From Lama guanicoe (Eukaryota): DNA of 64,000 nt. Under the pieces are notes generated by a model. The model had not been told where the DNA came from. It made no database searches and was given only the letters and a program-made list of their open reading frames with translations. The stretch is from contig MU054466.1 of the NCBI GenBank assembly GCA_013239625.1, positions 434,001 through 498,000 of the forward strand. The letters are read 5' to 3'. Position numbers and translations under genes: made by a program. This document shows, piece after piece, positions 2,915 through 49,931 of this stretch; the stretch's first letter is position 1, and the number at the start of each line of letters is the position of its first letter.

Positions 2915-5900
2915 TCACGATGGCACTTTGATGCCAAAGTGTTTGCGGAGCTGTTCCAGAAACACAAACGTGAGCACGGTGTGGGGCATGAGGCGGATGC
3001 CCGCAGGCACGAGGCCCTGAGGGAGGAAGGAAGGGTGTGAAGAGCCCCAACAGGCCCACGGGGCCCCTGCCCCACGCCACCCCCACGAACCTTGTAGAAG
3101 GCCAGCGGCCCGAGCTTTGCTGTCTCCATGGCGCAGTGCAGAACACCCTGCAGAAAACGCAGAACCACGCAATACGGAGGCCGCTTCTGGAGAGGCGTGA
3201 ATCCCCCCCACTCTGGTCACACTGAGGGTGGGTGTGAGCCCCGCAGAGCAGCCTGGAAGTGCAACGGTAAGAGCAGGAGGTGGGGCTGGGGGCCACAAAG
3301 GTCAAGGGCTGCCTGCTCAAAACTAGACCCCAGGAGCACACCCCAGGGTGCTGTGGTGCCGAAACCCACAGAAGACCGGTGTGTGCTGGTGGGGGCTGGG
3401 GGGTGGGACCTGCCCCCTTCATAAAGGCACCATGTGAAGTTTCACTGACTGCAGTGACCGGCTTGCTCTGTTAAACACACATGGGGCCCTGGGAGGGACG
3501 CAGTCACGGGTGGAGGGGGACAGCCGCGTCCACACCCGCGACAAGGAAGCAGACCTGCAGGGCGGGGCCCCACTCACCCGATATTCGCCCTTGGCGTTCA
3601 TCAGGCGGGTCTTCAGCACGTCCAGGGGCTGGCACAGGACAGTGGCGCATCCGCCCTGGGGTGCAGGGTCATCACCAACGGTCCTCCCCAGGCCATGGGG
3701 ACACCAGGAACAGCCCCGGCCTGTGGGCTCCTCCCCAGGACCCTGGCGCCCACCTGTTCAGTCTAACTCGTCCAAGCCGCCTGCCACTGAGCCCCGCCCT
3801 CATCCCAGGGCCCCCAGGGAGGCCCCACCCCGCCACTCACCGCGATGAAGCTGGCGATAAAGTGAGTGAAGATGCTGTCGGACAAGTACCCGGTGCTGAG
3901 AACCAGCTGCTTGGCTTGGTCATAGCAGGACAGCTGTGGGGTGGCAGGGACAGTCAGGGCCCAAAGGACAGAGCCCAACTCGGGGGAAGCCAAAAGGGGC
4001 CCATAATGACACCAGCTGGACTGACCAGTACCCACTCTGCTGGGTCATCTACGGTCACCACACCCACCACAGACACGCCCCAGCCCCACCCGTGTTCCAT
4101 GCCCACTGCCTTCCTCTGGGACTTCTCACAGGGCCCCAGAGCCCCACTGCAAGCAGAAACCCTACCTGACCCACGGTGACCAACATCCCTCGACTGGACG
4201 CCATGGTCGCGCCTGAGAAGAGCTTCTTCAGACCCTCTGCCGGGGGAGGGGAGAAGTCGGGTGCCCAGCCCAAACCCCTCCCCACCCAGGCCCCACTCCT
4301 GGGTCCCAGCCCAGCCCTCCCACCTCTCACCTTCTCGGGCCACACGGCACAGGCCATCCAGGGCGTGGGCATAGCTGTCGGGGACAGAGTGGGCCCACAT
4401 GAGCTTCTACCCCCCCTCATGGGAGCCACGGCCCCATCCCAGGCCAGGAGGTGCTGAGTGTCAAAAGGACCAGAGGACAATGGCTTCCTGTCTCCCTGCT
4501 CACAGGAGTTCAGGGCTTGAAGAGGGAGGGAAACGCCCTCTGGGGGCTGCCAGCTCCGAGGCGGGTCCTGTCTGCAGGCCATTACAGAGGGAAGGAGGAC
4601 GGGACGCCCCGTGGGGCCCCCTCTCCCCTGGTTCACTCGTCCACCTTCCCCGGGGCTGACGCTCCAGCCAGAGCAGACAACGCGCTCACCTGCAGCCACA
4701 AGCCCCCTGAGCTGACTGGGCCGACGCCCGGAACCTAGCGCAGCGACAGTCCCCAGCCAGAACCTTAGACTCCCTAGCACCCTACGTTTCACCAACATGG
4801 TGCTTTCATCACAGAAAGAAAAACTAATCCCTGCACCCAAAGCCTTTCGAAGGTCCACACTCACTTCCACTTCCAAACCACCCTCCCCGTGGGTGCACGC
4901 AGGTGCACGCGGGAGAAGCGGTGACCAGCCCTGGGGTCCTCCTCCCACAAGGAGAGGACCAGAGGTGTGTACTACGCCTGTTTCCAGAAGCTGTCAGCCA
5001 GCTCCATGGGATCCCACAGGCGAGTCCCGGCTGCGTCCTGGCAGAGCCACTCTGGGGGCTCCTCCGCCCCGACCCCCCGGCCCCACCCTGCAGGCAGAGC
5101 GTGCTACTCACTTTCGGCGCTGGCTCTGGGGCAGCTTCATGTCATTCTGCATCCTGAAACAAGCAGGGGCTCAGCGGGGCAGCAGGGCCAGACACCACCC
5201 CAACACACGCCAGGGGGCGACAGCGAGCGGCCAGCCCACCGGGGGCTGCCCTGCCACAGGCTCAGCGCCACCCCCAGTGTCCAGGACCCCAAGGTCCGAG
5301 TGGCCTGTTCCAGGCTGAACACCCACAACCCCAGTGAATGAGGTTGGCTCTCAGGGGACAGCGAGACCCTGGCCTCGGGGGCCAGGGTCACTGACCTGAC
5401 GTTGACCATGTCCGCGGGGGTCCCCACGAAGCCGCCGATGCAACCTGGTACAACAAGCCACCCCGTGACCCCTGGCACTGCCCACCACCCTCGCCCGCCC
5501 CACTCGCCCTTGGCCACTCACCGCTGAGGGAGCCCAGCAAGACCTTCTGGTAGAAGGGCAGGGGGCCCTGGCTGCCTTTGGTTACCTGGTCCCGCACGGT
5601 CTCGTAGATGGCGAACCGAGTCAGGGAGTAGGTCATCTGAGAAGGGGCCCCACTCAGATGCTGCGGGCGGATGGCGCTGGGCACACTTCACAGCCCTGGT
5701 CCTCCAGTGCAATGGTCTCCACGTGGACCACGGGGCACCAAGGGACATGCCCAAGGCCACACAGCCAGCAAGCAGCTGAGCCAACTCACAAACCTGGGGC
5801 TGAGTCCAGGCCTCACACCCTCCTCTCCTCTCCCTGGGCTCAGTTTCCCACCCGAAGGTGGAGGTCTCGGGCCGCTGTGACAGTGGCTGACCCTGTGCAA

Positions 5901-8334
5901 GGCAGAAGCACCTCCCACCCCCACCCTGGGCGCTGTTGGCTCCCCTGCCTGAGGTTCCTCCCGTGTAAGCAGCCACAACTAGCCTGGGGGCCAGGGGGCA
6001 GTGACCTTCCTGCCTGCTGGGACTGAGTGCGGGCTCTGGGACCAGGACCTCAGGGACCCGCCACCCGGGGTGGGGGAGCCCCCAGATGCACCTGTCTGCA
6101 CAGGGAGGCACTCAGCCCATTGTAGAGCGCCAGCACGCCGTCAGAGCGCACCACCTGCAGCGCCATGCCAGTCATGCGCAGCTTCACCTCCTGCTGCGTC
6201 TGCAGGTGCACCTGCGGGGAAGCGGCCACACCAGCTCAGAGAGGTACTCCACCTGGGGCCCATCCAGGCCAGCTCTGCCCTGAGCCCTTTTCACAACCTT
6301 CCACCTTTACAGCCTCACACTAACCTTGTGGGCCAAGTGCTACCAGCACCCCCTTTGGCAGGGCACCAGCCGGGGAGTGGGGCTAGGACTCTGTGTCCAC
6401 ACCCGGAGCCAACCTCCACTGGATACCACCAGCCGACACATGAGCCTACCAGGCCCATGAGAAACATCCCACCTGCCGTGGGGCAGTCATCAACCCCACA
6501 CTTTAGGTGAAGACACTGGGCAAGTCTAGAGGCCCACCTTGTAGCCACACCTGACTTCCGAGAGGGACAGAGTTACGGGGACTCAGATGACCTGAAGAAA
6601 CATGGGAGACTCGGAAGACAGGGGTGGGAATCTGGGGGTACACAGGGAAAGGGCGCCCTGGAGTCCATCCCTGTGGACCCCACTCTGTCCAGCCCAGCCA
6701 CATCCTGGGGGGACCCGCTGGGGAAGGCTATTGACTCTGCTGCCTCAGTTTCTCTCAGCATGCAGTGAGCCGGGAACAGAGGGCCTAGGCCTGGGGGCAG
6801 GGTGGCCACACCGGCAGCAGCCCTCGTCCAGGTGAGAAACCACTGAGAGAGTTGAGCCAAGACATAAGGCAAATGGAGAGACCAAGTTACTTTAGAATAC
6901 TTTTTCCAAAGACTGGGCAGAGAGATAAAAATCCTGGCCAGGGTCTCCCTCCGAGGTCTCCACAGCTGCTGGCACTTCCTGTTGCACCCCCGCACATGGC
7001 CACGTGCTTCCTGGGCCAGAGGGCGGCCAGGCTCCGGAGGCCGCAGGCCTCCCCACCCCCGCCCCCAGTGCTCTGCAGCAAAACAGCACCTGGGGGGTGG
7101 GGCAAGGGGCAGTGACGCCCAAAGGAGCCTTGGCCCACAGACCATGACTCTAGGCTGGCCTGGTGCCACGGAGGGCTCCAAAAGCTCCCGGAGGCTGTGC
7201 CCACGCTGGGCAGGGACAGTGAGCCTGATCCTCCAGGCGCGCGGTCGGGGGTGGGGGATGAGGGAGCGCAGGGACCTGCGGGGGCATCCAGAAAGTAAAA
7301 CAGAACAGGCACGAGAAGGGAAAACGCACCTTCCTACCTGGCCCTGGGGGCTATCAGGGCCTGTACTGGCCTCTCCCAGGATGAGCTAGGTCTCAGAAAC
7401 GCTCCCGGCTTCAGCCCCACCCCCAACTTTTGCTAATCCTGCCTTTGCTGGTGGACACTCTGAGGCTTGAGGGATGGCTGGGTCAGCCAGGGACACAGGT
7501 GCCAATCCCTCCCAGGGGTCCAGCGTGGGACCCAGGCTGCTCTGGGTGGCCAGGTGGCTGCCCTTGCCCACAGGACCCACAGGGCCACAGCCCAGGTTCC
7601 CTGGCGCAGGGCCAACGGCCAGAACATGCTTTGTGCCTCTGGCCCTTTGTTGTTTGTGGTGAGAGCACCAGAAAACCAACCTCCCTCGGCTGGCCTGCCC
7701 TGAGACAAGGGAAGCTCTGTCTTACTCTGCCCCACAAGCATTCTTAGAAAAAAAAGCGAAAAGTGTGATTACTTCTCGCTCTGGGAAACACCCTCACTGG
7801 ACAGGACCTGCACGCAGGCAGAGCTCAAGGCTTCCAGGTGTCCCCCCCACCTTTCAGGAGGAAGCAGCCCCTAAGAGGGGCTATCGACCACATCCCGCCT
7901 CTGTCTCCCTCAGTGTGTGCCGGGCACCCGCTCGGCAGAGGGGGCGCGTGGGCCGTGCCGGTGTGTGCTGAAGTCCGGACGCCTTTTCAAGTGCCAACAG
8001 CTGTGCTCCCAGAGAACCACCCCCTCAACGTGTCACCCAGCAGAACGTGTGTCCGCAAAAGTGCGGCGGGCGGGTCGGGAAACAGGCTCAGAGAGGCCAA
8101 GGGACGGGCCCAAGGTCACACAGGTAGCAGCAAAGTGGGATGGGGGCCCCGAGGGGCACCGCCATCGCCGCCTGCCCGCAGGGCCCCCGACGGGGGCGGG
8201 AGCGAGGGCCCGGCCCGAGGCCCTCCGCGCGCCGCGCTCACCTTGAGCAGGTCCAGCGGGTGCGTGCAGCAGGCGGCCCCGCACGACGCCAGCCCGCCGA
8301 AGTACCAGCGCGACACGCGCGCCTCGGCCGCCAT
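2915..8334 (-). CDS. SLC25A10: Mitochondrial dicarboxylate carrier (SLC25 family), 287 aa, 11 coding exons
   Basis: Exons (minus): 8242-8334, 6092-6211, 5522-5636, 5396-5444, 5112-5153, 4331-4374, 4166-4236, 3841-3933, 3578-3655, 3091-3147, 2915-3016. All introns are GT-AG; total 864 nt. Translation MAAEARVSRWYFGGLASCGAACCTHPLDLLK|VHLQTQQ...QPLDVLKTRLMN...KHFGIKVPS* has three carrier Px[DE]xx[KN]x[RH] motifs. Confidence 0.97.
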
Positions 8335-12392: not shown

Positions 12393-15581
<3,189 letters not shown>

Positions 15582-15772: not shown

Positions 15773-16978
15773 GGACTTGCCTCCTCTCGCTCCTCGAGAT
15801 TACCCACAAGGCAGCGGGCCGCGCAGGCGCAGAGCCGCGTTGGTGGCCTCGGCCGGCTCCGGCCCGTGGCGCGCTGGGCGAACGAAGGCCGGAGAAGGCT
15901 GAGGCTTGGCGCCGGGTTCCGACGGGCCGGGACCTGGCCTTGTTGGACAGCGCAGCGACGCCTGCCCCCCGAGCCCGGGCTCGTGACGTTTGCGCTGCCT
16001 CAGGGCGGGCCGGAGGGTCCCCAGTGCCCTTCCTCGGCAGGTCTGTTCCAGGGATCCGGCTTGTGATCTCCTAGCGGGAGGAGCGCCCTGTCCTCTCGGC
16101 CGCCTTCTCTTCGATTTCTTCTTGTACCTAAAGCGACTGCTTTTCCAGGCAGCACGCGGGCACGTTTTGTCCTGTCGGGGCCGCCCTGGGAGCGAGGCCG
16201 CCGCCCTCCGGAGTACCAGCCCGCAGCGAGCTCGGGAATCGGCTAAGAGTTGTGACTGAGCTGAGCCCGGATGGGGTCCTTGGCGGAAGGGCCAGCATTT
16301 CACCTGGGAGAAGAGGATTTGTAAGCTTGGGCTCTGCCTCCTTTGCAGTGCTGCCCCCCTCTCTGTCCAGCTCCCGAACGTCTGGACGTGGGTGTCTCCA
16401 GCTCCTTGAGTCCTCTGTTGCTCTTGAATGCAAGCGGCAGCCCCCTCTCCCTGCTGTCCCAGATTTAAGGGCCCAGGGGGAACAGACCCCCACTTTAGGT
16501 CGAGTGGAGAAGGCAGGGCTGCCCTCTGCCCAGCGTTCCTATGATCCTGGCCCTGCCTGTGACCTGAGCTCAAGTAGCTTATCTGTGCCTATTTAGAAGG
16601 GCTGATGTGGAGGTCACTTAAGAGGTTTGGGCACTTAAGGTGTTCAAAATGTTAGGGTTGTCTTAAACACTTTTCCTAGGCTACAACTAACCAGCATTGT
16701 AGAATCGGACTGAAGCCCTGGGGCCTGCCAGTCTCTCCCAGGAGTCAGGGCAGTGCAGGGCTGCATGGGCAGGATGGTTGCTCAGCTCCTTGGTGCTTGG
16801 TCTCAGGGAGGAACAGCAGATCTGCAGCTAAGGCCAGAGCAGCGTCCACTGGTGGAGACTGTGGAACTGGGCCTGGGGCAAGGGACAGGCTGGCCTTTGG
16901 GAGCACCCCATCTAGAGTTAGACCGGCTGCCCTCCACCTGCCTTCTGAGCAGACACTTGAATACTTGTTGAAAGACGT

Positions 16979-16984
16979 TTTATT
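16979..16984 (-). terminator. Polyadenylation signal AATAAA for HGS
   Basis: tttatt on + at 16979-16984, about 570 nt after the HGS stop. Confidence 0.8.
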
Positions 16985-17548
16985 ATCACCGTTCCATTCC
17001 GTCTACTGAGCAGGGCACTGGATGAGATGACAGCTCAGAAGCAGAGAAGCTGGAGACAGGCCCCCAGCCTTCCTGCGAGGGCCAGGAGTACCCCTGCTGA
17101 CAGCGTGGGGGGGCCACACTGGAGGGCTCTGGGGAGCACTCACACGAGTCACAGGCCCACGGTCTCATGGGTAGGGGTGGGAGGGCGAGAGCTGTGAGGC
17201 ACAGAGACCCCACTCCAGCCAGCCATCGCAGGACCTGACACAGGGGGCTGGGGGCTTCCTCTCAGAGAAGGTCCTTCCCTTCCACCCTCCTACCCGAGGC
17301 CCAGCCCTAGCGAAAGAAGTCAGACCGACTCACGGAGACAGGGACAGGGATGGGGCCTGGGGGGAGGAGGAGCCAGCAGGCGAGAACAAAGGAGGAGGCC
17401 TGGGATGAAGGACCACCCCAGCTCACATGGAGCAGGGACACTACAGGCAAGAGAGGAGAGAGCAACGCGGGTGGACGACGCTAGTTAGAGACGGAGGCAG
17501 CGGTTTGAACCGTAGTGTTACTCTGGATGGCGAGCTCCCCGGCTAGGG

Positions 17549-20500
17549 TCAGTCAAACGAGATGAGCTGGGCTTCGCTGCCCTGCACCGGTGGCCCCTGT
17601 GCAGGTGGCTGCTGGGCCACTGGGGGCTGCTGCTGGGGAGGGCCGCTGGAGGGCGCCATCTAGGGGGACACATGGGGGCTGTTGGTCTGTCCTCCCTCCC
17701 TCTTCCCTCCCTAGGCCCCCGCCTCCCCACCCTCTAATGGCTCTTCTAGAACACTTGTGTCCCAACCTTGCCCCAGGTCTGCAGGCCCCCAACTAGGCCC
17801 AGCCTGGGCTGCGCCAGCGGTGGTCTCTTGACTCCCTCTTTCCACTTGTCACGGGCTCCCGGTCCTCCTGTCCCCAGCAGAGCACAGACCCCAGGAAATT
17901 CTGATTAATGTCTATGGAGTTGAGCTGATATGGCCTAGGGCTCTTAAGTAAACACGTGCTTTCGACATCCCCAGGTGTGACTGTGTTTACGTCGGGTTCT
18001 GCCTGCAAAGCAGCAGTCCTTGCCAGCACTGGCCACCTTCCCAGGGCAGCCCTGCGGCCGATGGGGGCTCAGAGCGAAGCCTGAGCTGGCTTCCAGCACG
18101 GCCCTCCCTGGGGTCATGAGCTGTGATGGCGGCCCTGGGAGAGGCTCACCTGCTGGTACATGGGCTGCTGCCCCGAGATGTAGGGCTGCTGCGGGGGTGG
18201 CAGAGATGCATCCTGGCTGGGGAGGGTGGTCATGAGGTTCTGTGGAGAATAAAATGAACCTGAAAAGGGAGCTCTGAAACCAGAGAAACAGCATTTCTGA
18301 CTTGGAAAATCAAATGCCAACCAGCAAAGAGAGCCCAGTGGAGAGGACATGGGGTGGGGAGAAGGGCGGAGCCTGACAGTGCACCCCCAGCCTCTTGCCA
18401 AGGGTCCCCAGCCCGCCCCTGGCTGCTGACCCCACAGCCACGGCCTCTCACCTGCATGCTGTAAGGCTGGTAGCCCATGGACACGGACTGGCTCCCCATG
18501 TAACCCATGGTGCCCGACTGTGGGGGCTGGGAGATGGCCGGGAGGCTCTGCGGGGCCTGGGAGGCCACGTTCTGTGGAGGGAAGGGGGAACGGGAGAGAG
18601 CTGGGCCCAAGTGCCTCACAGTGGGGCTTTGTGGGGAGAGACGTGGCCCACCCGCCTACCTGGTACCCCTGCGTAGGGGTGGGCTGGTAGGACGAGTAGG
18701 CTGGGCTGGCGGTGGGCCCTGGGGGGCCCTGGGGGGCTGCCTGGGTGCCAGCGGCCCCCGCTGGGTACATGTAGGCACTCACCATGCTGGGATCTGCAGG
18801 GGAAAGGAGGCATGAGCCCCCACCCTGAGGGTGGGGGGGTGCGGGGGGCCTTCCTCTAAGTTGTCCTTTTCGTTGTGACTTTGGAACCAAGTTCACGTTT
18901 CATGTTCTCACAAGAGGGTGATAAATGAAACTGACGAGGACGAGAGAGACCCCTGCAACGTGTGCCATCAGGAGACCCGACACCGAAACTGACGGGTGGT
19001 CTGCAAGATGGCGGGGCTGGTGCTCTTTGGGAAGTCTGTCACAGAACCCTAAGGCAGACTGAGGAATGTTCTAGATTAAAGGAGATGAATGAGGCAGAAC
19101 AGCTGAACACAACACTTGACAGGTTTCCTGTTGGCACAAAGGGTGTCTCGGGCCATGCATGAGAGCCCAGCTGGGGGGGACACAGTCGCACCACGGCCTG
19201 AGAAGCCCCTGGCCTGGCGTCTGTGCCGAGGCCACACGGAAGCGTCCTGGTTGAGGAAACACACTGAAGCCTCTAACAGTAGAGGGCGCCCGGCTTGCCA
19301 CTCACCCTAACCTGCGCCAGAAGCGAGTGCGCGTGGGAAGAGGCAGGGTGGGGCATGGGAACACCCGGGGAACCTAAGCACCTCTCTGAACCGCTCTTCT
19401 AGTAAGTCTGACGTCACATCGAGGGAAAACAGAAGAACAGGGTAGTGATCTGGGCTCGTCTCGGCTGCTCCGTGGCTCCCCCACCGCCCGCCAGCCCATT
19501 ACCTGCTGTGGCCCCGGGCATGCTGGCGTAGGGGCCGCTGGTGGCCGGGGCCGCCTGGCTCATGTACATGGCGTGCATGGGGGAGCCCTCAACTGAGCCC
19601 GCGGGGCTGAAGGTCCCTGCGAAGCTTGCGGGGCCTGAGGGCTGGTACAGCACGCCCCCTGCCGCGGGCATGGCCTGGAGCTGAGGACAGAGACAGGACG
19701 TCAGAGCAGTTCTCGGTCCCCAGCGTCCCCCGAGGGCACGGGGCAAGGCTGAGCACGTGCCTGGGCATAGGGCAGGGAGAAGGCGGGCATCTGGGCCCGC
19801 ATCTGGATGGTCTGCTTCTGCTGCTCCAGGCGCATCTGCCGCTCCTTCTCCTGCTCCTGCAGGCGCTGGATGGCCAGCTGCCGCTGCACCTCCAGGTATT
19901 CCTGCTTCTTCTGCCGCATGATCTCCAGCTTCTGGGCCAGCTGGATCTGGCGCTGGCGCTCCGCCTCCTCGGCCGCGCGGCGCAGCTTCTCCCGGTGCTC
20001 CTCCCGCAGGGCGCTGAGGGCCCCCCGGGCGTCCCGGATCTGCGCCAGCTTGTCCTGCAGCCCCTCGTAGTACACTGCGGGGGAGGGCAGAGCTGGGGGA
20101 CCCTGGCATTGGCCAGAAGCACGGGATGCCCAGCGCTGGGCACCTGCTCCGGGCACTGCCTGGGCCTCCCTCGGCCCTGCCGAGTGCTTGTCAGCAGGAC
20201 AGCGGGCAGCTGGGCTCCAGGAAGGGCGCACGTGTGCACGCACACACGCGCGCACACTCTCTCCCCTGGGCTGGCTGGCCTGCGCTTAGTGGGTATTTCC
20301 TGCCACGGGGGTGGCCTGCTGTGGAGCCCGAGGCCCACACCTCCCCCGGCCGGACAACGCCTGGCCCAGAAGGCACCCCCAGCCCTGAGAGGGTGCAGTG
20401 GCCCCTGACCGGAGCCCCGTGGCACCTACGCCTGCGCTCGTCCAGCTGGTTGAGCAGCTCGAGCAGCTGGGGGTGCATGCCGTTGATGGACTGGAAGAGC

Positions 20501-23500
20501 GACAGCACGGCCGAATCGTTGGTGATGCTGCGGCCTCGCACGTGGTTGCTCTTCATGCGGTTGACGAAGGTGGTAACAGCGTTCTGCAGGGCCTTCAGGA
20601 ACTGGGCGTGGCTCTCCTCCGACTCCCCGTTCTGGCACTGCAGGGGCACGGTGCGGTCTGGTGAGCACCTCCTACGTGCCCAGGCCCGAGCAGGCACCCT
20701 CCGTCCGGCTCTGCCAGGCACTGAGCTCCAAGCCTGCTGCCCCCTGACCGGGCGCCCCCGGCAGCTCTGCGAGGGGCACCCTCAGCACCCGGCTCACAAG
20801 TGAGGAAACAGAAGCACAGGCACAGCATGGCTGAGAAGAAGCTGCCCGGCCCTGGTCTCTCACTCCAACGGGCAACAAAATGCACAGCCCCAGGAAGGCC
20901 CCGGACTCGTCCTGGTGGTTCTGGTCTGCCCGAGAGTATTACGATCATTCAGGGTAGGCTGCGAGTGTCCGAGCTCTGGCCCACAGCCAGCCCAGACAGA
21001 GCTGATGGAGGGTTCTGAGCCGGAGAAGCCCAGCTCCAGGAGGCCACTGCAGGCACCACTAGGCCCTCCTGACACTCTGTGCTCCCGGACACCCAGATTT
21101 CCCCTAACCCAAGGAGGGAACCGCAGCTTACCTCACTGAAGGAGCCACCGGCGGGAGTTACAGGCTGAGGATCCATCTCCGGGAGGGCAGTCTGGAAGAG
21201 ACGAGAGGGTGAATGGGGCTCCACCTTTGGCCTGTCCCTGTGTCCCCGTCCCAAGGACTGCGGGCAGCAGCCCGAGAGCAGCCCCTCACCTCCACACTCG
21301 CAGGGCCTGAGTGGCCCTCGGCGGGCTGGACAGTGGGCTCCGTCAGAGGCACTGGAGCGGACGGCGTGGGGCTCCTCCGAGCCTCCTCCTGCTTCTTCTC
21401 CCAGTAGTTGCGGTTGAGGTACCGGGCGAGCTGCACGGGCAAAAGGGGGTCACTCTCGAGAGCCAGGAGGCAGCGAGGGGAAATTGCCACCTGCAGGGCG
21501 TCCTCACCTCGGGGTCGATGTCCTCGGCCAGAGGCGCCGACGAGTTCTGGGGAGACGTGGGGGGTGTGAGGGGCCGTGGGCCAGAGGAGCAGCAACCCTG
21601 GCCGTCGCTCAGGAAGTGTGGATGGCGCAGTGCTGACAGTGGACCCCAGAGGCTGGCCAGAGCCAGTCCAGTCCCCAAGGGGCTGTACACAAGGTGCAGG
21701 GTGGTTCCCCGCCAGCCCTCCCAAGTACCCTCCAACACCCAGGAGGCAGGGGCAGGGCCACTCTCAGCCCCACCCCTGGAGCCCTGCACAACTTGCAAAT
21801 GACTTTCTGAACCTTCTGTCCCACCTGCTACCCATCCACTTTCTACAGAGGGGACTGGGGCCAGAGAGAGGTTGGGCCATCCCCCAGAAAGCAGGCCTGG
21901 GAGAGCTGCAAGGGAGGCTAGAAAAAGGCAGGGCCCTTGTGACCCCAGGCTCCCCACCTCCTCCTGCCTTTGCATCATCCTCTGCCCGACAGGGGCCCCA
22001 GCCAGGGAGCAGAGGCCTGTGAGAGCCAAGCTGCACCATGACCACTGCCGGCGAGATGCCGTGTCCTTCCCCCAGCGCCTGCCCCCCACACCTTCCCACC
22101 CACCACGGGAAGGCGTCTAAGCAGAGGCTGGGGCGGCTCACCACGGGTGAAGAGTACAGGCTGCTGGCAGGGGGCGCTGACGAGGCCACGGGCGCGGGCT
22201 CCGCCTTAGGGTACGCGGTGTAGGCCGACTTCTGTCTCTGCAGGAGAACCAGGAAGAGGGTGTCGCCATGTGCTCCTCTCGGTCACCCCCACTTCCCTCC
22301 ACCCGCCTCTGCCCCCATCCCCAGCTCACCATCCTCTCCTTCTCCTCGGCCTCTGACTGCGATAGGGCCAGTGCCAGCTGCAGCTCCTCCTCCTCCTGCA
22401 GGGCCGTCTCATCCCTCTTGGGGGGCAGCTGGGAAGGCAGGGCAGGTGGGTGGGGTGCCCGGGGCCCAGGAGCGAGGCGCAGCCTGGGGCCCAGGCGGTA
22501 CCTGGGACTGCTGGGACAGGGGACTGGTCAGGTACTCCGGGGGCAGCTCCGTTGATGAGGCAGCCTTTCCCTCCGCTTTCCTGGAGGAGACAGGACACCG
22601 TGGGTAACCAGGCACCAGACGCCGGGCCCCCAAGTTCTCGAGGACACTGCCTGGGCTTCCCTCCCATGTCCCCACAGAAGGATGACGGAGGTTCCACCGG
22701 CCACTCCAGAGAGTAGCTGGACCCTCAAAGCAGCTGTCACATCCGGGCTGCAGGGCTCCGGGCGGGTCACCAGCCTGCGCTGCAGCCTCCCTCCTGGAAG
22801 CGAGGCTCCGACACCCACTGGCCAGGCCACGGCCCACGGAAAGGCCTCCCCGTAGAACGGCCCGCGGACACCACCTCTCTGGGGGTCAGGACCCACACCC
22901 AGCGCTGGGACAGGTGGACAGCAGGGCCTCCAGACCAACCGCACAGAGCCCGACCCTAATCATGAGGAAACCTTGGACCCACACCCAGAGACACTACGAT
23001 AACCTGAACCCCGGCAATGTCCTGTCACGAAAGATGAGGGGGCTGAGGCACAGCCGGGTTAGGCAGCTGAGGTGACCGGTCCTGACAGAACAGAACTGCC
23101 AGGGGCCCTCCTGGGACTCGGGAAGCCCGCACAGTAGGTGTCGGCAACTACTGACGCCAGATGCCCCAACTCCACGACTGCGAGGAGAACGTGCCCCTGG
23201 GCGGCCACGTGGGAGGCCGAGGGGTGGGGGTCCGGGGCCTGCTGCCCACCCCCAACCGGTCCAGGACACAAGGCGCGTGCACAGGGACACAAGCAAGCGG
23301 GGCAGGTACATGCGATAAGTCAACGGGGCCACCTGGGGACCGGGGGAGGGGGCGTCCACGTGGGGTCTCCTAACCGCTCCCGCCACCTCTTCTGTAAGTT
23401 TTACTCCCAAACCAGAAACTTAGAAAGACAAACTCAACCACCTGGCCGGCTGGTCTCAGACCCCGGGCGCCCGTCTGGCTCTGCCCCGAGTCTGGCGGGG

Positions 23501-26500
23501 CCGAGGGAGCAGGGCCCGGGTGGGCCCCCTAGACAGTGGAGACAGAAGGCCGGCCCGGCTCCAGCGCCCACGGGGGACTCACTTGTTGAGCTGCTCATAG
23601 CAGGGCTCGCACACCCGCACTTCCTTCTCGATGCCGAACTTGGGGATGGTTGAGTACTTGGAGGAGCACTTGCCACAGAAGATCTGGCCACACGCCCGGC
23701 AGTGGTGCTGCGACACAGGGCAGGTCAGGGCAGCCGGTCCGTCCCCCTTCGCGCCCACTCTGCCCAGCACCACCCACTGCAGACACCGTAGGCTGGGCCT
23801 CCCAGGCCGGGGTGGGCAGAAGGGCCTGGGAGGCCAGAGGCCCTGGGGGAGTAGGGCATACTTCCAAGTCCCCGACTACAGCCTCCATTTGGGGGAAATA
23901 AGTATATATTGAAAAGAAGAAAATTTACAAAAAACGTGAATTGCCCTGATAAACAAAACTTTTGGTGGGCGGTGGGTGTGGTGAGTCTGCTCAGACGCCC
24001 GGGCCCAGCCCTCGCCACGGTCAGCCTGGACTTGGGTGGGAAGAGACGGTGGCCCGAGGGTCCAAGCCGGACAGGCTGAGTCAGCCGAGAAGACTCGGCT
24101 AATGGGCTGTTGGTCAAGGGAACGTAGACCCAGAGTGTTTCCGGCGGCGTGTAGCCTGGCCCGAGCTTTACCCAAGGGCACTGACCATCAGACACAGGAC
24201 CCCAAGGTGACCATGCTCACCACACAGCTGGGGGCTCGATGTGCTCCCCCCTACCAGGTCCCCACCAAGAGGAGAAGGACCATGCTTGGGTGCAGTGGCC
24301 TCATGACAGCAGCGGGTGGCCTGGGGCCCCTCCCCCAGGGCAGGCGCACTCACCTTGCGGGTCACAACCCCGAACTGTACCCGGCAGCGGTGGCATTCCT
24401 CAGCATCCACCCAGTCTGGGGCCTGGGGACGGGCAGAGTCAGGGTCACCCAGCCCCAGCCCTCCCTGCCCAGATTCCCGCTTCCCACAGGTGGGAGAAGA
24501 CCCCGGTGTGGGCAGGGGACTGGGGCCAAGTCACTGCAGACAGAGGAAGAAGTCGAGAAAGGCGCCCCCTCCAAAAACATTTCCTTTCTAAAGACACGAC
24601 AGCTAGACTTCCCCCAGCTCTGGAGACATGTCACTATGTTTTAACTGTCGGCCCGTGAGCCGCAGCCCTAGGGCACCGTGAACCGGGTTCCCGTCTCCGC
24701 CTGCAGAAACGCACGTTCCCCTCGGCAAGGTCAGCGTTCTCCTTCTCAAGACCAGCAGCAGCTCCCCTGCTCCCAAAAAGTCCGGGTCCCAGGGCCCCTT
24801 CTGCTTCCTCAGAGCCACCCAGTCCCTGGACCCCAGCGCCCTGCGGACTCACTCTCTCTGCGGCGAACATGGCGTCACTCTCCTTGAACTCGGGGAAGAC
24901 GTGTCCTGGAGAGAAGAGGCCACTGTCATGGCCAGGGGCCGCCCTGCACACGAGGCTCTCGGCCTCTCCAGTCCTCGCCCACCTGCCCTGAGGCTTTCAG
25001 GAGCTGTGTCCTGGCTCTCGGTATCTGCCTCCCCGACGCCTCCCCTCCGGGCTGGCACCTGCTGTGCCCTCAACAGCCAGTCAGCTCCACACTGGCCGAA
25101 CCTGAGGCCCCAGTGGGACGCGGGCCCCGGCCTCCTCCTGCTGGTTCGTCGTCACGCTCAGGTCTGGTACTCTTGCCACCTGCTCTCCAGGCCTCCCCCG
25201 ACCATGCGTCCTAGCCACCCCCATCCTCCTCTGGGGAGCCAGGTCCCCCTCTCGGAACCCAGCTCCTCCATCAACTCACCACTGCACTGCCTGGCCCCTG
25301 CTCTGATGGGGCATGAGGCCCATCAGAAAGCAGGGACTCAGGTGCCCAGAGCTGCACTGAGGCCACCGCTGCTCCCACGGAGAGGAGCCGCCCCCAACCT
25401 AGGTGGGGTGGACACAGCCTCCCTTGGGTCTGCCTGGTACAGGGTGCATCCTGAGCCTGGGACTGGACCCTCCTGCCCAGCTCCCCCGCTCACCTTCCAC
25501 CTTCATGATCTGGTACGTGTCCTGGACCACCTTGTACTTGGGTTCGTTCCGGAAGGCGTGTGCCCAGGCCTGGATAAGGTACAGGATCTTGTTTCGGACA
25601 TTTACTTCTACCTGCCTCTGCAGAGAGAGGAGAAAGAAGGGGGGGAAGGGGGGCCTTGGAGGGTGCAGGTACCAGAGACATCTTAGTACGGGGAGGCGGC
25701 TGGAAGACCCCACTACTCTGACAAACGGGGCTGGCAGAGGTGAGCACTGGGGCCACGGACTCACCCTCCTCCCTAGACACAGGCCTTCTCCAGGGCACCC
25801 TGTCTCTAAGAACAGATCCACTGTAACTGTCTGTCCACGCAGGGCCTGGACTTGTCTCTAACTGCCGGCAGAAGCCAGGGGTCCCGGAAGAGACGGCTTT
25901 CCAACCTACTTCCTGCTGTACTGGAACTACCTGCTCCCTCAACCCCGCCCAGGACTCCATCCGACCACCTCGGGAGCCCTTCAGCCTAAAACCCACTCTG
26001 GTGCCACTAATGGCCACCTCAAACAGGCAGAGCCAGCCAGGCTGAGGGAGCGAACGCCCAGCTGGCCAGCCCCGCCCTCCAGGCACAGCCACCCCAGGCA
26101 CGTGGTGGGGGCGGCAGCTCCAAAAAGTTCCCCACATACAAAGCCATCACCTCAGCAGGTTAAAGCACAGCCAATCACATTTCTAAGCCTCTCTCAGGGA
26201 CGCCGTCCACACTCGGCGCTCAGGATGGCAGACTGAGAAAGCTGCTTTGTGGAGACACCGACTGCAGCTCACGCACCCGGCTTGCCCCTCTTCCCTGTAA
26301 TCCGTGTCAGGTCAGTGGACCCCCTTCCTGTGGCAGCTCTGCTTCTCCAAGGACCGCAGCCACACGCAGCACGAACAGGGCACAATTGTGCCCAATGGGG
26401 AGGGCAGGTCCCAATTTCTCCACCAAGGTCACCAGTCAGGCCCTCGGAGAAGCCCCACTGTCAGCTCAGCCCCAGACAGACTCCTGGCCACGAGACCCGC

Positions 26501-29401
26501 GGGCGCCCGATGGCAGCAGAGACAGTTGCCCACCCTGGCAGCCTCACGTCCATGGAGCCCTTCACTTCCAAGGGTGGCTGCACTGCCCAGCTCTGCATCA
26601 CACAACCTCCTGGTGTCAGCACCCACGTCATAATCCCTGCAGGCAGGCAGTGAACTTGACCCCCCTAGGTGAGCCCTTGGGGCCCTGGAGGACTTTCTCT
26701 CCTTGGCCTGGGCAGGTGTGAAACCCACTGCCGCAGCGTCCCTGCTCTGCTGCACCCCCTACTCCTCCGCCACAAGCACACTGGACTTGTGTGCCTTCCT
26801 GCTTAGGGGCCTTCCCAAGCCTTTTGGGGCCCCCGAGGCCTCCGCTGGCATCTCCTGTCCGCAGCCACATGCCAAGACTACTTCCCCACCTTCTCTGCTG
26901 CTCAGTGAGCGTCCTCTGCCCTTCAAAACTCAGCTCCTGCCCCAAGGAAACCTTCCTAACCTTGCAGGAGGAGTGGGTCTCCTCTGCACCCCTTGGAAGA
27001 GCCCCAGCTGGCTTCCCGTAAGGCTTGACCTCATCAGGCAGGCGCCATGGACATTCCTGTTCCACTGTGCCTGACACTGTGCCTGCCATGCAAACCCCGA
27101 GAAGCCCATGTGCGGGGTGGCACACCCCAGGCCAGGCCTCCCCGGTCCCTGTAGGGTGCTCACCTTCAGCAGCTCCTTCAGCTCCTCCATGGTCTGCTTG
27201 TTGGCCACCTCGTCGTGGACCGTCTGGCCACAGTTCTTCACAACAGACTCCATGACCTGCAGAAGCCAGGGAGAAGGTGGGCCTCGACAGGGCCTTCAGG
27301 CCACCCAGCCAGACGGGAAAGCCCACAGGCAGCCTCCGGGGAAGGCCCTTCTAACTCCATGTTACCAATGACAGACAATGGAGTCAGCCTCGGGGCCTGC
27401 GTGCAGCAGCCTTGCCCTCATCCCGGCGTTCCACCGGGGCTGCCCTCACCCCCGGTGCCTCCACTGCTGGCAGTCCACCCAGCCCTGACATCCCCATGGT
27501 TGATGAGAGGAGTCTGGTTACCTCCAGGGCGTACAGGGCCACGTGGGGGTTCTTGTCATTGACTTTCTTCTTGATGGAACTCACGGCATATTTGGCTCTG
27601 ACAGGAAAGAGCCACAGCAAAAGCAGAAACAGAAAGGGAAAGAGAACACAGTCTCTGAGACTCAGAAAAAGCCCAGCCGCCATCCGGTCCTTGAGACCTC
27701 AGGCAGTCGTGCAGGTGACCACACGCTTCCAAGCTGCACAGAAGTCCTTTAATGGCCCCAAGATCTCAAAGACCCCAGCATGCAGACCAAACAGTCGTCC
27801 AGCCCTCGGGAGGTGAGCGGGCACTCACTGTGTGTCCCCCTGGCGGATCAGATCGCAGATCTGGAGGATGGACTCCCAGTCAGTCTCCAGAAGCAGCTGG
27901 CTGGTCGCTTTGTCTAAGGCAAAAACGCACTTGTTATGGGGGCTCATCCTGCTCAGTGACTCCCTAGGTGGCCCCCCAGCTCAGTGACAGGCAGGAGGGA
28001 CTGCCTCCTTCCCATGTTAGACATTTAGATCAAATGGAAAACCACTTAAAAATCTTCCTGTCTCATGGCAATAACCACAAGGGTGCGATCCTCCCCAAAA
28101 TGGAAGCAGATAGCTTGGAAAACAAGAACAGAAAACGCCTACCACATACTTGTCACAAACCAAATGCTGTTTTGAACACTATGTGAACTCATTTAACCCT
28201 TACAGAACTTTATAAATCAGTTGCTATTTCTACTCTCTTACAGACAAAATGACACAGAGAGGTGAAGATGCTGCCTGAAATCACACAGCTCGCTGCGGAC
28301 AGAGTCCAGGTTCAACACTGTACTCAGATGACTCTTCGCAAAAAAAGCTCTGCTGCCCTATCCCTCAGAGCCCCTGGTTTTTCCAAGGTTTAGCCTACCT
28401 AACTAGCCCTCAGCTGGGGCATGGCTGGAAAGATGCAGTGTGGACCCCAATCCTCTGCTTCAAATGTTTTGTGGGGTGAAGACAGGACGGACCTGCCAAG
28501 GAGAGTTCTCCAGCCAACCCCTCTCCTCTGTGTCAGACAGACGTGCTGTGAGGCGCTGCTGCTCCAGCCCAGCCAGCACCACCTCCCCTGGAGTCCTACA
28601 AATGATTGATATTGATCTGGCAGTAACTTCTGGGTGGACCACCAAAGGGCTGAAACACCCCATAAGCTGAGTTCCTCAGCCTGCATGTTCCACTGAGGTC
28701 TCCAAAACCACATTCAAGGAAAAAGGAGGGTGGGCTCAGGCAGACCAGGGAAGCACCCACAGCGCCTGTGCCAAACACAGAGCACACACAGTTTCATCGA
28801 GGGTGGGGGATTTGCCCATAAACATTCCTTTTCCTTCCTAAAACCTGCGACCTCCCGGAGCCTCAGAAGGATCAGCTACCCACCCCAACGCAGGGAACGC
28901 CTTCCTAAGCCCCAGACGCTTCCTGGAGCCAAACAGGGACCCACGGCGCTAGTCTGGCTCCCCAGGGAAGCAGCGCCCCAAAAGGCCTGGCAGGCTCCAG
29001 ACAGGACACTGCTGGCTCCACCCTTCGGGACCCCATGTCTGGGTCAGAACTCCCAGATCCCACGCAACCTAGGCTTTCCTGGAGCGAGACGGCCTACTGA
29101 GGTTTTACTGTTTGCCTGAGTCACCCGGTTCCGTGACTCAGGACGTGAGGCCCGCTCGGCCGGACGCTGCCGGTCGCTCTCCCGGGGCTCCTGGTCGGTC
29201 TCCTGCGCGACCCTCACGCCCTCGGGCCGGCGCCAGGCCAGCGCCCCGGACCGCCGGGCCCCAAGTCGCCGGCGCGCCCGCCCAGGGCCCGGGTCGCGCG
29301 GCGGCCGCCCCGGGGCGCGGGGGCCGGGAGGCTTTCCCACGGAGGGTGGCGGGGGCCGCGTTACCTAGGAGACGCTCGAAGGTGCCGCTGCCGCGCCCCA
29401 T
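17549..29401 (-). CDS. HGS: Hepatocyte growth factor-regulated tyrosine kinase substrate (Hrs, ESCRT-0; VHS-FYVE-DUIM-coiled coil), 776 aa, 21 coding exons
   Basis: Exons (minus): 29365-29401, 27829-27913, 27522-27597, 27164-27256, 25494-25617, 24853-24905, 24354-24422, 23583-23707, 22502-22580, 22330-22428, 22142-22237, 21508-21546, 21290-21430, 21132-21191, 20430-20637, 19761-20074, 19503-19680, 18660-18793, 18452-18571, 18150-18239, 17549-17659; total 2331 nt. Starts MGRGSGTFERLLDKATSQ; contains FYVE RKHHCRACG, a PSAP motif and the C-terminal clathrin box LISFD*. One intron (19681-19760) has a GC donor. Confidence 0.96.
28160..28330 (-). mobile_element. MIR SINE fragment
   Basis: Degenerate MIR core (ctcatttaaccctt...ttacagac...cacagagaggtgaagatgctgcctgaaatcacacagct). 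Family assigned from recall. Confidence 0.55.
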
Positions 29402-29682: not shown

Positions 29683-31507
29683 ATGTGTCTCCTGCTCGGG
29701 GCCACGGGTGTCGGCAAGACGCTGTTGGTGAAACGCCTGCAGACTATCCTTCCGCGCCAGGCGGGCGGGGGAGGGGCTGGGGGACTCCGGGGGTAGCGCT
29801 GGTGGGAGCGGGGCAGGGGCCGCCCGGGGCTGGAAGCGTCAGGGCCACGGTCCACCTGGGGCGGGGGGCGCCCGGGGCAGGGTCGGGCCAGCGCTCCCTC
29901 CTCTGCCCGCCTCGGAGTCCTTGACCGCCTCGCACAGCTGAGCTCCCGGGATGGGAAGGGCGACCTGGGCGATCCTCCCCCGACGCGGCCCACGGTAGGT
30001 GCCCGCCCTTCTGCAACTTTGGGAGAAGTGAGTCCCCCTGTGCGGTTAGGAAAGCGCTTTGGGTTCTTTTAAGTGGAAGCTGGAGTCCGACGGTCGGTGT
30101 GTTCAGCACAGCCCTTGGGAGGTGGTGGATGTCACCGCAGGGAGTTTGGCTTCGACGGGACAGAGTCGCAGGGGATCCGGAGCCGCCCGCCTTTCACCAC
30201 CGTTCAGACTGCTTTTGCTGCTGGCCGCAGAGGGCGAATCCCGGTCGTGGGGTCCTGGACTTCTGGGAGCATCTTTAGGTCTCCTCTGTCACGGGTTCTG
30301 CCCTAGGGCCTGCGCACTCGAGATGGGGGTAACTCGCAGTGTAAAGGCTGGGCACGTTGCTATCCAGGAGTTCCCCGGGAAAACGCTTGTGTTGGCCTCT
30401 CTGCAGCCTGGTTTCTTCCACAGGTGGGCACCAACCTTACGGACATCGTGGCCCAGAGCAAGATCACCATCCGGGAGCTGGGGGGTTGCATGGGCCCCAT
30501 CTGGCCCAGTTACTATGGAAACTGTCGCTCTCTTCTAGTAAGTCGTCCTCTTTTGAACTTCCTTTGGGGAAGTATGTCTCCATTCCAGCATTTAATCCCC
30601 AATTTCTCTATTTTTGGGGTAGAGTTTGGGTTCCTGGGTGACTGTGCTAGTCAAGGAAACAGGGCCCAGGCTAGAGCTGCTTCCCTCTGGGGCTGCAGCC
30701 TGATCCTGCTCCCAAGCCAACATAAAAGCTCCAGGACGGCTTGTTGAGGTCAGTGTTCATTCTCTGTAGGTACCTGTGACGTCCACTCACTGCCTTGCTG
30801 CGGTGATTGTGTTTTTTCATTTTATGTTTAAATTATATATTCCCCTGGTTCGTCCCGTTCTGTCAAGACCTGTGCCCAAGATTCCAGGAGAAGTAACCTT
30901 CCTTGGAGAAGTAACGGCCCCACGAGTAGAGAGACTTCCGTGGAGGTGCAAACAAGCAAGCAACGCCATCCTCCTGCAGGGCTCGCTCCCCTCTGCTCCT
31001 GCCTGTCCCCAGCCAGGCCTGTGATTCCAGGAGAGGAGAGCCCGCTGCAGGAGCCTAATTAATCTCCACTTCCTCTTTCCCAGTTCATGATGGACGCCTC
31101 GAACCCCACGCAGCTCTCTGCCTCCTGCGTGCTGCTCCTGGGTCTCCTTTCAGCAGAAGAGCTTGCAGAAGCATCAGTTCTGATACTCTTCAATAAAATG
31201 TGCGTGTCCGTGAGCCGAGAGGGGTGCGGGGTGCCCCAGGGCGGAGCTCCCGTGGGGCAGCCGGGAGGGTGGCTTGTGGGGGGTTGGGGTGGGCTCCTGG
31301 CAGCCCACCCTGACGGGGCGCTTCTCTCACTCCAGTGACCTGCCCTGTTACATGACCACGGAGGAGATGAAGTCGTTGATCAGGCTCCCAGACCTCGTTG
31401 CTTGTGCCAAGCAGAATATCACCACAGCGGAAATCAGCGCCCGGAACGGCACTGGCTTGTTGGAAGTGCTGCGTTGGCTCCAGGACACCCACAGAGCTAA
31501 CGGTTGA
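29683..31507 (+). CDS. ARL16: ADP-ribosylation factor-like GTPase 16, 173 aa, 5 exons
   Basis: Exons: 29683-29743, 29936-29994, 30424-30537, 31084-31199, 31336-31507 (522 nt). MCLLLGATGVGKT (P-loop)...PTVGTN...RELGG...FNKIDLP...EISARNGTGL. Intron 1 is U12-type (see findings). Confidence 0.93.
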
Positions 31508-40010: not shown

Positions 40011-43000
40011 TCACCACTGCAGGCGTGTCTCTGGCGTCTTCCTGGAAGCGGGCCGGGGTGACCCCGATGGCTGAGGCCCCTGCTGCTGCCGCTGCAGCTG
40101 CTTTAGCGCCCTGTAGGCCTGCACGGCCCGCTTTCGCTCCTCCACCACGATCCGCTGCCGGGCTGGCGAGGTGCTCTGGGGCTGGGATGCGGTGCCAGGG
40201 CTCAGGAACTTCTCCAGCATCAGTGCTCTCCCGCCAGGCTGAGGAGCAGAGCCAGGGAAGTGGAGGCACAGCTGTGGGAGGGAGGGGAGACAGCAAAGAC
40301 CCTGAGCCCAGGGACAATGCGGTACAGGTCCTGTGTGCTCTGGGCCACGCAGCACTGGGGGGCAAACAGGCCAGCACCCTGCCCCTGCTTACCTGGCCCC
40401 TGCTCATGCTCATCCTGGGCTTGGCAGTCAGCTCCGGGGGCTGCAGCACCACCTCACCAAACTTCACCACATCTGGAGGGGCAGAGACAGCCACTGCAGT
40501 CCCGGCACCCGGCGCCACTGCCCGCCCAGCCACCAGCCCCGGGAGACACGGGCACCTGCGCCCCACCCCGGCCCCCAGAACCAGGGCTGACGACTGCCGC
40601 GGGAAGAGCACCTTGGAGCAGCTCCTGCTCCAGCCTCTCTGCGGCCTCTTCCTCCCTCCTCTGCCGGGCCTTCTCCAGCCGCCGCTGCTGGAACCTGGGA
40701 AGAGAGCAGGGCCGTTCACACTCCTCTCATCTCACTGGACTCAGGAGGAGGCAGAGATCACCCCCTGCCCACAAGGGACGCTCCACAGCAGAGCCCCGGT
40801 GGCACATGTGATGTGGCCCCTTAATGTGACTGGAATCAACGTTCAATGAGTTTTAGAGATCACTGTGGCTTTGGGTGGTACCCGGGATGCGTCTGCTGTG
40901 CTGGAGTTTTCATTGGCTAATATGACTACACGTATGATTCAGACACGGGGAGAATCCACAAAGCTGAAAACAATCCAGTGTTCACAAGTTTTACAGAAAT
41001 TTCTGGTGAAAGCTTGGTCTGGTTCATGTCAAAAGTTGCAGTGAGTGGGGGCGGGTAACAACTCAGTGGCAGAGCACACGCGTAACATGCAGGCAATCCT
41101 GGGCTCAATCCCGGGTACCTCCATCACAAAAAAAGAGAAAAAAATGTTGCAGGAAAGATAAAAATCCATCTCCAAAAGCACTTGTTTGCTGAGACCACCA
41201 CCCCAGCCGCCACCGGCAGGCTCAGGGAGGTGGAGACTGGGTTGAGGGCAGAGGTGGGCCAGGGAGCTGCAGCTCGCGGAGGGCTTCCTCCTGGTTCCGA
41301 TCTCCCGTGAGCCCCAAGATGCAGGTGCCAGTGTCTCCACTTCTCCCACCAGCTGAGTCTGAGAGGTCACAGAACTCGTGCAAATGACACAGCTATAGGC
41401 TTTCAAAGCTCTTTCAGGTGAAAGGTGAACCCTGGAAACCAACATCCCCCAGCGGCCAGCAGGCCCTCCTGGGAGGGCACCGAGCCCCACTTGCTACTGG
41501 TTCCCTGTACCCGACCTGCGTGGACAGCGGCCCTCGGCCCCTCTCAGCTCGTAGACCCCTGATGCTTTCCAGAGACAGGCACAGACAAAACCAGGCCTTC
41601 GGGGTTCCGTGGGTTCAGAGCCTTGCTGGAGCCGAGGTTAAGCAGGTCCCGTGCAGAGAGAAACACTGCCGACTGCCAGGTCTGTGCTTTCCCTGAATCA
41701 CATGGTGGGGGAGGGTGCCCACCCGCAACAAGATGCTGTCACTGCAGGAGACAGTCGTGCACGCGGCTGGACCCCCAACCTCTCCAGCCCCACTCACGCC
41801 TTCTTCCGCTCTGACTTCTCCTTCCGGGGAGCTGCCCGTGCCTCGGGCTGCCGGCTGGCCTGGTTCTTGCTGAGGAACAGCACATGCTGGGCCTCCTGCT
41901 CCATGCGCCGCACATAGGCGCCATCGGACTCCCACTTCCTCTGCGTGAACTTCGGGACGGCGATGTCCGGCTCCTCTCCCTTTGCTTCCTTCTCCAACGT
42001 CTTCCTAAAGGCCACCTGGGCTGAGGACACAGGGAGACTTCAGAAGGGCGGGTCGTAGGGGAGGAGGGAGCAGGTGGTGCCAGGCTGGCTGCCCAGGCTC
42101 ACCTCCCCTCCCGGGGCGACAGGAAGGGTAGACTAGGCTCAAGCAGGAGCTAAAAAGCATCCGAGCCGCCAGCCCGGGGCCCCCGACAGGTCATAGGTGT
42201 CCCCCGCAGCTCGGCTGGAAAAGGAAGCAAAAAACAACCTAAGTGTTCATCAATAGGTGGCTGAATGAGTGAATTCCCGTGTTCACCCAGAGACGTCACC
42301 GCTCCGCTGCAGGGCAGAGATGGGGAAGGGATGTGGAGAGATCTACAAAATCCACTGGAAGAGAAAACCTAGAACACCAAACAACGTACAGAACTAAGGT
42401 GCAGCTTTTACACAGTAAATGTGTGAAAATACACACTGTTTCCTCTGGGACGGCTCACAAGAAAACAGACGGGGAGGGAGCAAGACTCAGAGACGGGGCC
42501 GGAGGCTACCCCTCACCTCATACCGCTCAGAACTATTTAATTTTACCAAGTGTGTAAGCCTTTATCTTTTAAGTAACTTAACCAGGAAAACGGCTGATTC
42601 AGTAGAATGCGATTCAGAATGTCCCCCTCCCACCTGGGCCAGCGACCTCCTCTATCCCTCCCCATCCTCAACTCTTCATTTCACTATCCCTTTGGCAGCC
42701 ATCTAACCCTCAACGAAAAGCCTAAGGTTTACAGAGACATTACAAAACCCCATTGTTGCAAAATCAGCCCTACATTTGGGAAACAAACACCTATACATGT
42801 ACACAAAATGCAAACACGCTGGACTCCATTCCCCAGCAGCCAGGGTGTTACCCCTGGCAGAGGCCGACAGGTGGGCACCCTGCCTGGCCTTGGGGGAAGG
42901 GGGCACTTCTCAGGGCATCTGATCAATTCCCTCCGTAACCTCTGGAAACCATCCACTTCTCTCCACCATCGTTTCTGCCCTCTGGTCCATGGGACCACCA

Positions 43001-48823: not shown

Positions 48824-49931
48824 ATGAACCTGGAGCCACCCAAGGCCGAGATCCGGTCGGCCACCAGGGTGATCGGGGGGCCCGTCACTCCCAGGAAAGG
48901 GCCTCCCAAATTTAAGCAGCGGCAAACCAGGCAGTTCAAGAGCAAGCCCCCCAAGAAAGGCGTCCAAGGGTAAGCAGGGCTGTGGGCGGGGCGCCTGGGG
49001 GGCGCGCCGCAGGGAGCGCGGCTGGCTGCAGGTCGGGTCGGGCTGGGCTCAGCCATCCTCTCCTGGCTGAAGGCAGTCTCCTCCTCCCGAGTGGGGGTCG
49101 GTTCCCAGGGGCCTGAGCTGGGCCTGTCTCTGGGCGGAGGTCGCGGGACAGGAGACCCTTTGCTGTTCCTGCCAACGGGTCTGGAAAGCACACCTACCCA
49201 CTGCCACCCGGAGACTCAGCCGTGGCCCCGCCGACCACCTTGCGTCCCGCACTCACAGGCACAGGCCCCCGTGGACACACCCAGGACACACTCAGACACT
49301 CCACGTTGTCGGGAGCCTGCACTCAAGTGCCCGCAAGGCCCCGCTCGGCTCCCTTCCCAGCCACTGTCCCTGACTGCTCTGTCCTTGCAGGTTTGGGGAC
49401 GACATCCCGGGAATGGAAGGCCTGGGAACAGGTATGATGGCCACGGGGGTCCGCCTAGGTCCCCCCCACCACCCGCTGCCCTGCTCTCTCTGGCAGGGGC
49501 TCATATAGGATCCTGCCCCCAGTCTCTTTCCTTTTCTTCCCCATCAAGCTTCAGACACCACAGAAGCGGGTGGTTCCTACTCAGTGGGTCCACCACATGC
49601 TTGGGGGCTGGGAAGGAACAAAGCTCTTGCTGTGCCTTCACCCCAGCAGCAAGAGCCCCCTTCCTTCCCCCGCGCCTGGCCTGCTGCACCCACTCCCTTC
49701 CTGGGCAGGGCACCCCCCAACACCCCCCCAGCTGGTGTGTCCTGGTAGGGGGGCTCTGCACTGGGACTTGTACTCTCACCGCTGGGACGGCAGGCCCCGA
49801 GGGGATAGTAGACCAGAGGACACCCCGGGACCCACTGGCCCCCTCACCCTGCAGACATCACTGTCATCTGCCCGTGGGAAGCCTTCAATCACCTGGAGCT
49901 GCATGAGCTGGCCCAGTACGGGATCATCTAG
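48824..49931 (+). CDS. PDE6G: Rod cGMP phosphodiesterase 6 gamma subunit, 87 aa
   Basis: Exons 48824-48969, 49391-49431, 49855-49931 (264 nt, GT-AG). [87 protein letters not shown]. Confidence 0.98.

Follow-up and report, generated by a model that had tools for sequence, protein, structure and literature searches.

Whether the membrane-trafficking gene HGS of Lama guanicoe has lost one of its introns without leaving a trace in the coding sequence, and by which route such a loss could have come about, is the question raised by a 64,000-nt stretch of contig MU054466.1 (GCA_013239625.1, positions 434,001 to 498,000, forward strand). We refer to this whole stretch as the window, and coordinates given without a contig name are positions within it. 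The original prediction was that two ancestral exons had been fused here by exact removal of the intron that follows the residues KKQ, probably through recombination with reverse-transcribed mRNA.

The fused exon and the gene that carries it

Splice sites read from the sequence define 21 coding exons of HGS, running from 29401 down to 17549, which join to 2331 nt, or 776 aa and a stop; a complete protein can thus be assembled from 21 exons, as had been proposed. All acceptors are AG and all donors are GT, with the exception of one GC, and the 3’ end of the gene (16963) was set from the junction of a retrocopy described below. The features of the gene around the predicted fusion are as follows.

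16963..29401, minus strand: whole HGS gene from its ATG to the poly(A) site, with 21 coding exons and 20 introns (776 aa)
20075..20429, minus strand: upstream intron, retained, 355 nt, GT-AG
19761..20074, minus strand: fused exon of 314 nt (ancestral exons 16 and 17)
19902..20074, minus strand: 5’ half of the fused exon, 173 nt, the ancestral exon with the KKQ end; same length as the fish exon L005:3582-3754
19901..19902, minus strand: site of the lost phase-0 intron, between Gln519 and Glu520, no indel
19761..19901, minus strand: 3’ half of the fused exon, 141 nt, corresponding to the in-frame ancestral exon of 47 aa (EYL...YAQ) and equal in length to L005:3844-3984 of the fish contig
19681..19760, minus strand: downstream intron, retained, 80 nt, GC-AG

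The 314-nt exon is bounded by an AG acceptor (20076-20075) and a GC donor (19760-19759), and its translation, YYEGLQDK...MRQKKQEYLEVQ...LPYAQ, is open from one to the other, in agreement with the claim of a single uninterrupted exon. When cut after KKQ, at 19902/19901, the exon falls into 173 and 141 nt in phase 0, and the arithmetic proposed earlier (173 + 141 = 314, no indel) is matched by a fish-like contig with the same two exon sizes. Because the two lengths sum to 314 and because the stretch from YYEGLQ to YAQ measures 104 aa in 90 of the 90 spliced homologues measured, we read the junction as exact, with zero exon bases missing and zero intron bases left behind. A hidden intron within the 314-nt exon was considered and rejected: apart from the first codon the exon contains just one GT, which sits in a Val codon, and therefore no intron is concealed there.

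At the retained intron 19681-19760, 10 other ORFs among the matches listed show GC-type read-through (A after YAQ) versus 19 of the GT type, and lemur, naked mole-rat and an owl have gene models in which an intron at this site is retained.

Compared with alpaca RefSeq isoform X1 the protein shows one difference in 776 residues, and compared with Camelus ferus seven, which places the genome within the South American camelids or very close to them. The single alpaca difference falls at residue 374 (exon 21191-21132), where the window has Ala and the alpaca RefSeq and Camelus ferus proteins both have Pro. Human HGS/HRS (O14964; PDB 3F1I chain H) belongs to the same protein family, and 3F1I_H is identical letter for letter to the first 36 residues of the 314-nt exon.

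A gene missing an intron could simply be a retrogene or processed pseudogene, but this was ruled out for the window copy, which still has 20 introns. [quoted passage not shown] An additional weak match to DUF6490 was seen once in the same 110 ORFs. Pfam and direct reading together give the following neighbours, with the gene names that we presume for them.

3422-6235: mitochondrial carrier (presumably SLC25A10)
12396-14921: ribosomal L12 (presumably MRPL12)
about 29683-29770: small GTPase (presumably ARL16), head-to-head with HGS
45144-45542: Oxidored-like (presumably OXLD1)
48776-49928: PDE6 gamma (presumably PDE6G)
51409-53822: tetraspanin (presumably TSPAN10)

This order of domains on either side of HGS is what we take to be the gene order of human 17q25.3. 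Being single-copy and having 20 introns left, the window HGS reads as the orthologue at its own locus and not as a retrocopy, and the intact flanking introns agree with what had been claimed for them.

We also considered whether the assembly itself is at fault, with the intron absent only here because sequence derived from spliced RNA, or a mis-join, took its place. The assembly is fragmented (55,231 contigs), and rodents seem to have partly spliced RNA of the same anatomy (see below). At the same time, no second contig with an intron-bearing version was found (the genome match is single), the 12 kb around the junction are gap-free with every other intron in place, and a DNA assembler would have no reason to remove exactly GT..AG; we consider such an artefact very improbable. 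The only run of Ns in the window (56176-56330, 155 nt) is distant from the HGS junction.

Ancestral state of the intron

The ancestral state was assessed on unspliced contigs, where a called ORF continues past the exon into the intron. With the 104-aa exon peptide as query, the best 120 of 309 hits were classified, and those with at least 87% identity across the first 57 residues were taken as vertebrate-like (n = 87 among these 120). Right after KKQ, 85 of these 87 ORFs break off, 84 of them as KKQ/V (GT donor) and one as KKQ/A (read as a GC donor), and two read through. A wider set of 240 proteins (the best 120 of 309 plus the best 120 of 478 hits, 3 of the 240 being without anchor) gave a similar picture: of the 111 vertebrate-like proteins whose 5’ flank is of the intron type, 107 break after KKQ and 4 read through, the ORFs counted being representatives of 90%-identity clusters and not a tally of species. 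Three of the read-through proteins (P0003, P0173 and P0176) are database gene models and the fourth is P0002, discussed below. For the 33 ORFs among the matches listed in which the next exon could be located, the inferred intron length is 72-231 nt, with a median of 83 nt.

Genomic DNA gives the same structure. A metagenome scan yielded at least 20 loci, and among the matches listed the one vertebrate-like locus was L005, with no mammal. This contig, fish-like by sequence, has the 173-nt and 141-nt exons around an 89-nt GT-AG intron at the KKQ site. The invertebrate-like contig L019 has a 145-nt GT-AG intron at the identical site, which argues that the intron is ancestral. Elsewhere in the gene, the fish contig reads through MQ/NM at about 4717-4899, where the window HGS has an intron (18240-18451), reflecting a separate loss in this fish or else, on the tetrapod side, an intron gain.

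Gene models point to the same splice site from another direction. In P0232 (cat) and P0210 (labelled bmy, presumably bowhead whale), KKQ is joined straight to LQAM with exactly the 47-aa second half skipped, and therefore a donor is needed after KKQ. The published structure agrees, in that the mammalian HGS/HRS gene is described as having 22 exons (PMC2796970) versus 21 in the window. The same source places splice sites of the long human form at residues 524/525 and 569/570; in our own count on human HGS the KKQ end is residue 522 and the next exon ends at 569, so that the second site agrees and the first differs by two residues. The structure with 22 exons and an intron after KKQ, which the original prediction ascribed to human HGS, is in line with outgroups and literature alike, and the sequences (outgroup ORFs, L005, L019) together with PMC2796970 support an exact loss of an ancestral HGS intron.

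The opposite polarity, in which the intron-less state is ancestral and the intron was gained in other lineages, draws what support it has from invertebrates: 32 of the 33 invertebrate-like ORFs among the best 120 of 309 hits read through the KKQ site, as do 7 of the 8 anchored invertebrate-like metagenome loci (9 inspected, among the matches listed). The absence of the intron from most invertebrate-like records is what would be expected where introns turn over, and two such records among the matches listed, L019 and P0027, do have an intron at the KKQ site. Moreover, fish, mammal-like and other vertebrate ORFs break at the site, and camelids lie deep within mammals, so that the intron would have to have been gained many times independently at the same nucleotide. 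We therefore give a gain elsewhere next to no credence and regard it as effectively refuted by the vertebrate-like ORFs, L005 and L019.

Some invertebrate-like records (L008:366-398, L009:446-478 and ORFs P0088, P0092, P0097, P0110, P0112 and P0117) break four codons later, as KKQEYLQ/V, an intron position close to that of vertebrates but distinct from it. Another record, P0154 (MBH0219595.1), is labelled at NCBI as a Listeria monocytogenes hypothetical protein while being a fish-like HGS fragment, probably through contamination.

No camelid genomic read-through ORF was found among the best 120 of 309, of 478 or of 353 protein hits, which is weak evidence either way. The closest intron-bearing ORF among the matches listed, P0160, has an 85-nt intron, and its intron flank shows 60% over the query when compared with that of the window, which seems too distant for a camel. 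In frame-compatibility tests on P0160, at least 12 of 23 species scored 39/39 for exon 18, and for exon 17 a full fit was obtained with 10 of 23 species, camelids among them and pig not.

Possible routes of intron loss

A search with the 3’ end of HGS found a processed copy elsewhere in the genome.

16963..17304, minus strand: 3’ UTR stretch copied into the processed retrocopy, with AATAAA at 16984-16979
G000:C7234, about 40652-41008 (= L023:1454-1810): the retrocopy

The C7234 retrocopy is 5’-truncated and spans the last 342 nt of HGS mRNA. Its start coincides with the poly(A) site, 16 nt beyond AATAAA; a T11 tract on the opposite strand is the remnant of a poly-A tail, and 16-bp direct repeats with one mismatch (a target-site duplication) enclose the copy. 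Relative to its parent it carries 32 substitutions at 339 aligned sites (K2P 0.10), which, under mammalian neutral rates, would very roughly date it to 20-35 million years ago, on the camelid stem. Such a processed copy indicates that HGS mRNA was reverse-transcribed in the germline of this lineage. At the same time, this copy is not the donor for the intron loss, because it is limited to the last 342 nt whereas 1360 nt separate the lost-intron junction from the poly(A) site, leaving the copy about 1 kb short of it.

Our preferred reading, which we hold at about an even chance, is that HGS is without exactly one short intron kept by other vertebrates because the gene was overwritten in the germline by cDNA of its own spliced RNA. 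LINE-1 reverse transcriptase would have made the HGS cDNA, the cDNA would have recombined with the gene along a tract lying within the two flanking exons (at most 314 nt, because both neighbouring introns remained), and the intron-less allele would then have drifted to fixation. Since the protein is unchanged, the event was probably neutral. The lost intron is the 16th of 21, with 1557 coding nt upstream, and its shortness (median 83 nt in 33 ORFs among the matches listed) counts for cDNA recombination, as may its place in the 3’ third of the gene, a single event giving no statistics on 3’ bias. In rat, according to PMC3652778, 27.7% of genes with lost introns are parents of processed pseudogenes versus 7.4% of other genes. 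Counting against the cDNA route, the signature of adjacent losses is absent (the next intron, 141 nt away, is kept), no HGS copy spanning the junction region was found in the assembly in DNA and protein searches, and the 4-nt CAG/G repeat of the ancestral intron permits a DNA-only deletion.

That repeat is the basis of a possible though rather unlikely alternative, microhomology-mediated end joining, in which a germline break in the short intron would have let CAG/G at the donor anneal with CAG/G at the acceptor, giving an exact deletion free of RNA. The fish intron of L005 carries such a junction microhomology (3 + 1 = 4 nt), read-through in P0160, the closest relative among the matches listed, implies a CAG acceptor for its 85-nt intron, and the acceptor is CAG in 17 of 24 resolvable ORFs and TAG in 7, with 9 more ambiguous (among the matches listed). 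A lone short intron was lost, and the model has been published for short introns with CAG/G at both ends (van Schendel and Tijsterman 2013, PMC3698931). The evidence in that paper, however, comes from nematodes and flies, and in mouse and rat microhomology was reported to be as common at conserved as at lost introns, with no enrichment (PMC3652778). Four nt is also the ordinary protosplice match, and many vertebrates in which this intron was never lost have it too. In favour of end joining, microhomology of at least 4 nt is found in just 3 of the 20 introns retained in the window; since these 3 do reach as much, the combination of a short intron and CAG/G microhomology is non-discriminating.

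RNA could also have acted directly, with a spliced or partly spliced HGS transcript serving as the template where a broken intron was repaired in place (Pol zeta type), free cDNA playing no part. This would account for a lone, local loss, and whole-intron deletions by such a route, with an exact exon-exon junction at the gene’s own locus, have been described in human cells and tumours (PMC12065846), while transcript-guided end joining likewise increases intron deletion (PMC11390984). Those deletions are somatic, whereas the HGS loss is an inherited difference in an assembly, and the authors of PMC12065846 state that germline or evolutionary occurrence remains to be determined; we consider this route unlikely. 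The rodent-like Logan records P0002 and P0124 are relevant here, in that they lack the KKQ intron while keeping both neighbouring introns, and flanks the same as or near-identical to theirs also occur with the intron (P0004, P0128, P0122 and P0123). This anatomy, next to intron-bearing near-identical flanks, suggests that partly spliced HGS RNA exists and that P0002 and P0124 probably represent it; alternatively, they could reflect a second genomic loss, in rodents. A more specific version, which we find quite improbable, is that the deletion was templated, on the camelid stem, by a partly spliced HGS pre-mRNA that had already lost the KKQ intron but retained its weak GC-AG neighbour, and that an isoform skipping the 47-aa exon was thereby abolished. 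If true, fusion of this symmetric 47-aa coiled-coil exon would make camelids natural isoform-locked HGS mutants, with the skipping isoform (annotated in cat and a whale) still open to other mammals.

An exact junction has an identical look under all three mechanisms. With a processed copy in the same genome, recombination with reverse-transcribed mRNA stands as the likeliest cause, as originally proposed, with microhomology repair as a rival; because the adjacent introns are kept and the retrocopy stops short of the junction, we give this mechanism as likely, although joint loss of adjacent introns or a junction-spanning donor copy would be supporting signs that a single event need not show.

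Relation to known intron losses

A list of intron losses by Coulombe-Huntington and Majewski from 2007 reportedly includes dog. The notion that such losses are rare in mammals, which accompanied the original prediction, needs tempering in view of the precise losses listed for mouse (45) and rat (86) by Zhu and Niu (2013, PMC3652778) and the 80 precise intron deletions found in mouse by CESAR (PMC4914097). TOGA2 detects precise intron deletions routinely, for example NARS intron 3 in Old World monkeys and a case in GAPDH (bioRxiv 10.64898/2026.06.30.735536). The rodent losses of Zhu and Niu resemble the present one in that an intact orthologue has lost an ancestral intron exactly, its gene also being the parent of a processed pseudogene, and differ in lineage and gene, and in that the window HGS shows no adjacent loss. 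The CESAR and TOGA2 cases are alike in having two exons fused with no indel, and are attributed in those sources to recombination with processed transcripts.

Hgs does not occur in the table of rodent lost introns (PMC3652778, supplement S7) and is present in that study only in the orthologue list; the main texts of PMC4914097 and of the TOGA2 preprint do not mention HGS, nor does the TOGA2 text mention camels. We found no prior report of this HGS loss in the literature on mammalian and cetartiodactyl intron loss or on retention of HGS intron 16, and the released CESAR/TOGA2 annotations may already contain it. As judged from the sequences compared here, we regard it as confirmed that this assembly shows a real and exact loss of an ancestral intron, specific to the lineage, and we see in it a new case of a well-documented type of event.

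HGS adds a non-rodent case in which the gene that lost an intron also has a processed copy. Because the loss leaves the protein unaltered and we know of no dispute over the branching order of camelids, the main value of the case is as one data point for a genome-wide survey of mammalian intron loss. The loss would serve as a clean presence/absence marker of camelids as a whole or, should camels have kept the intron, of the South American species.
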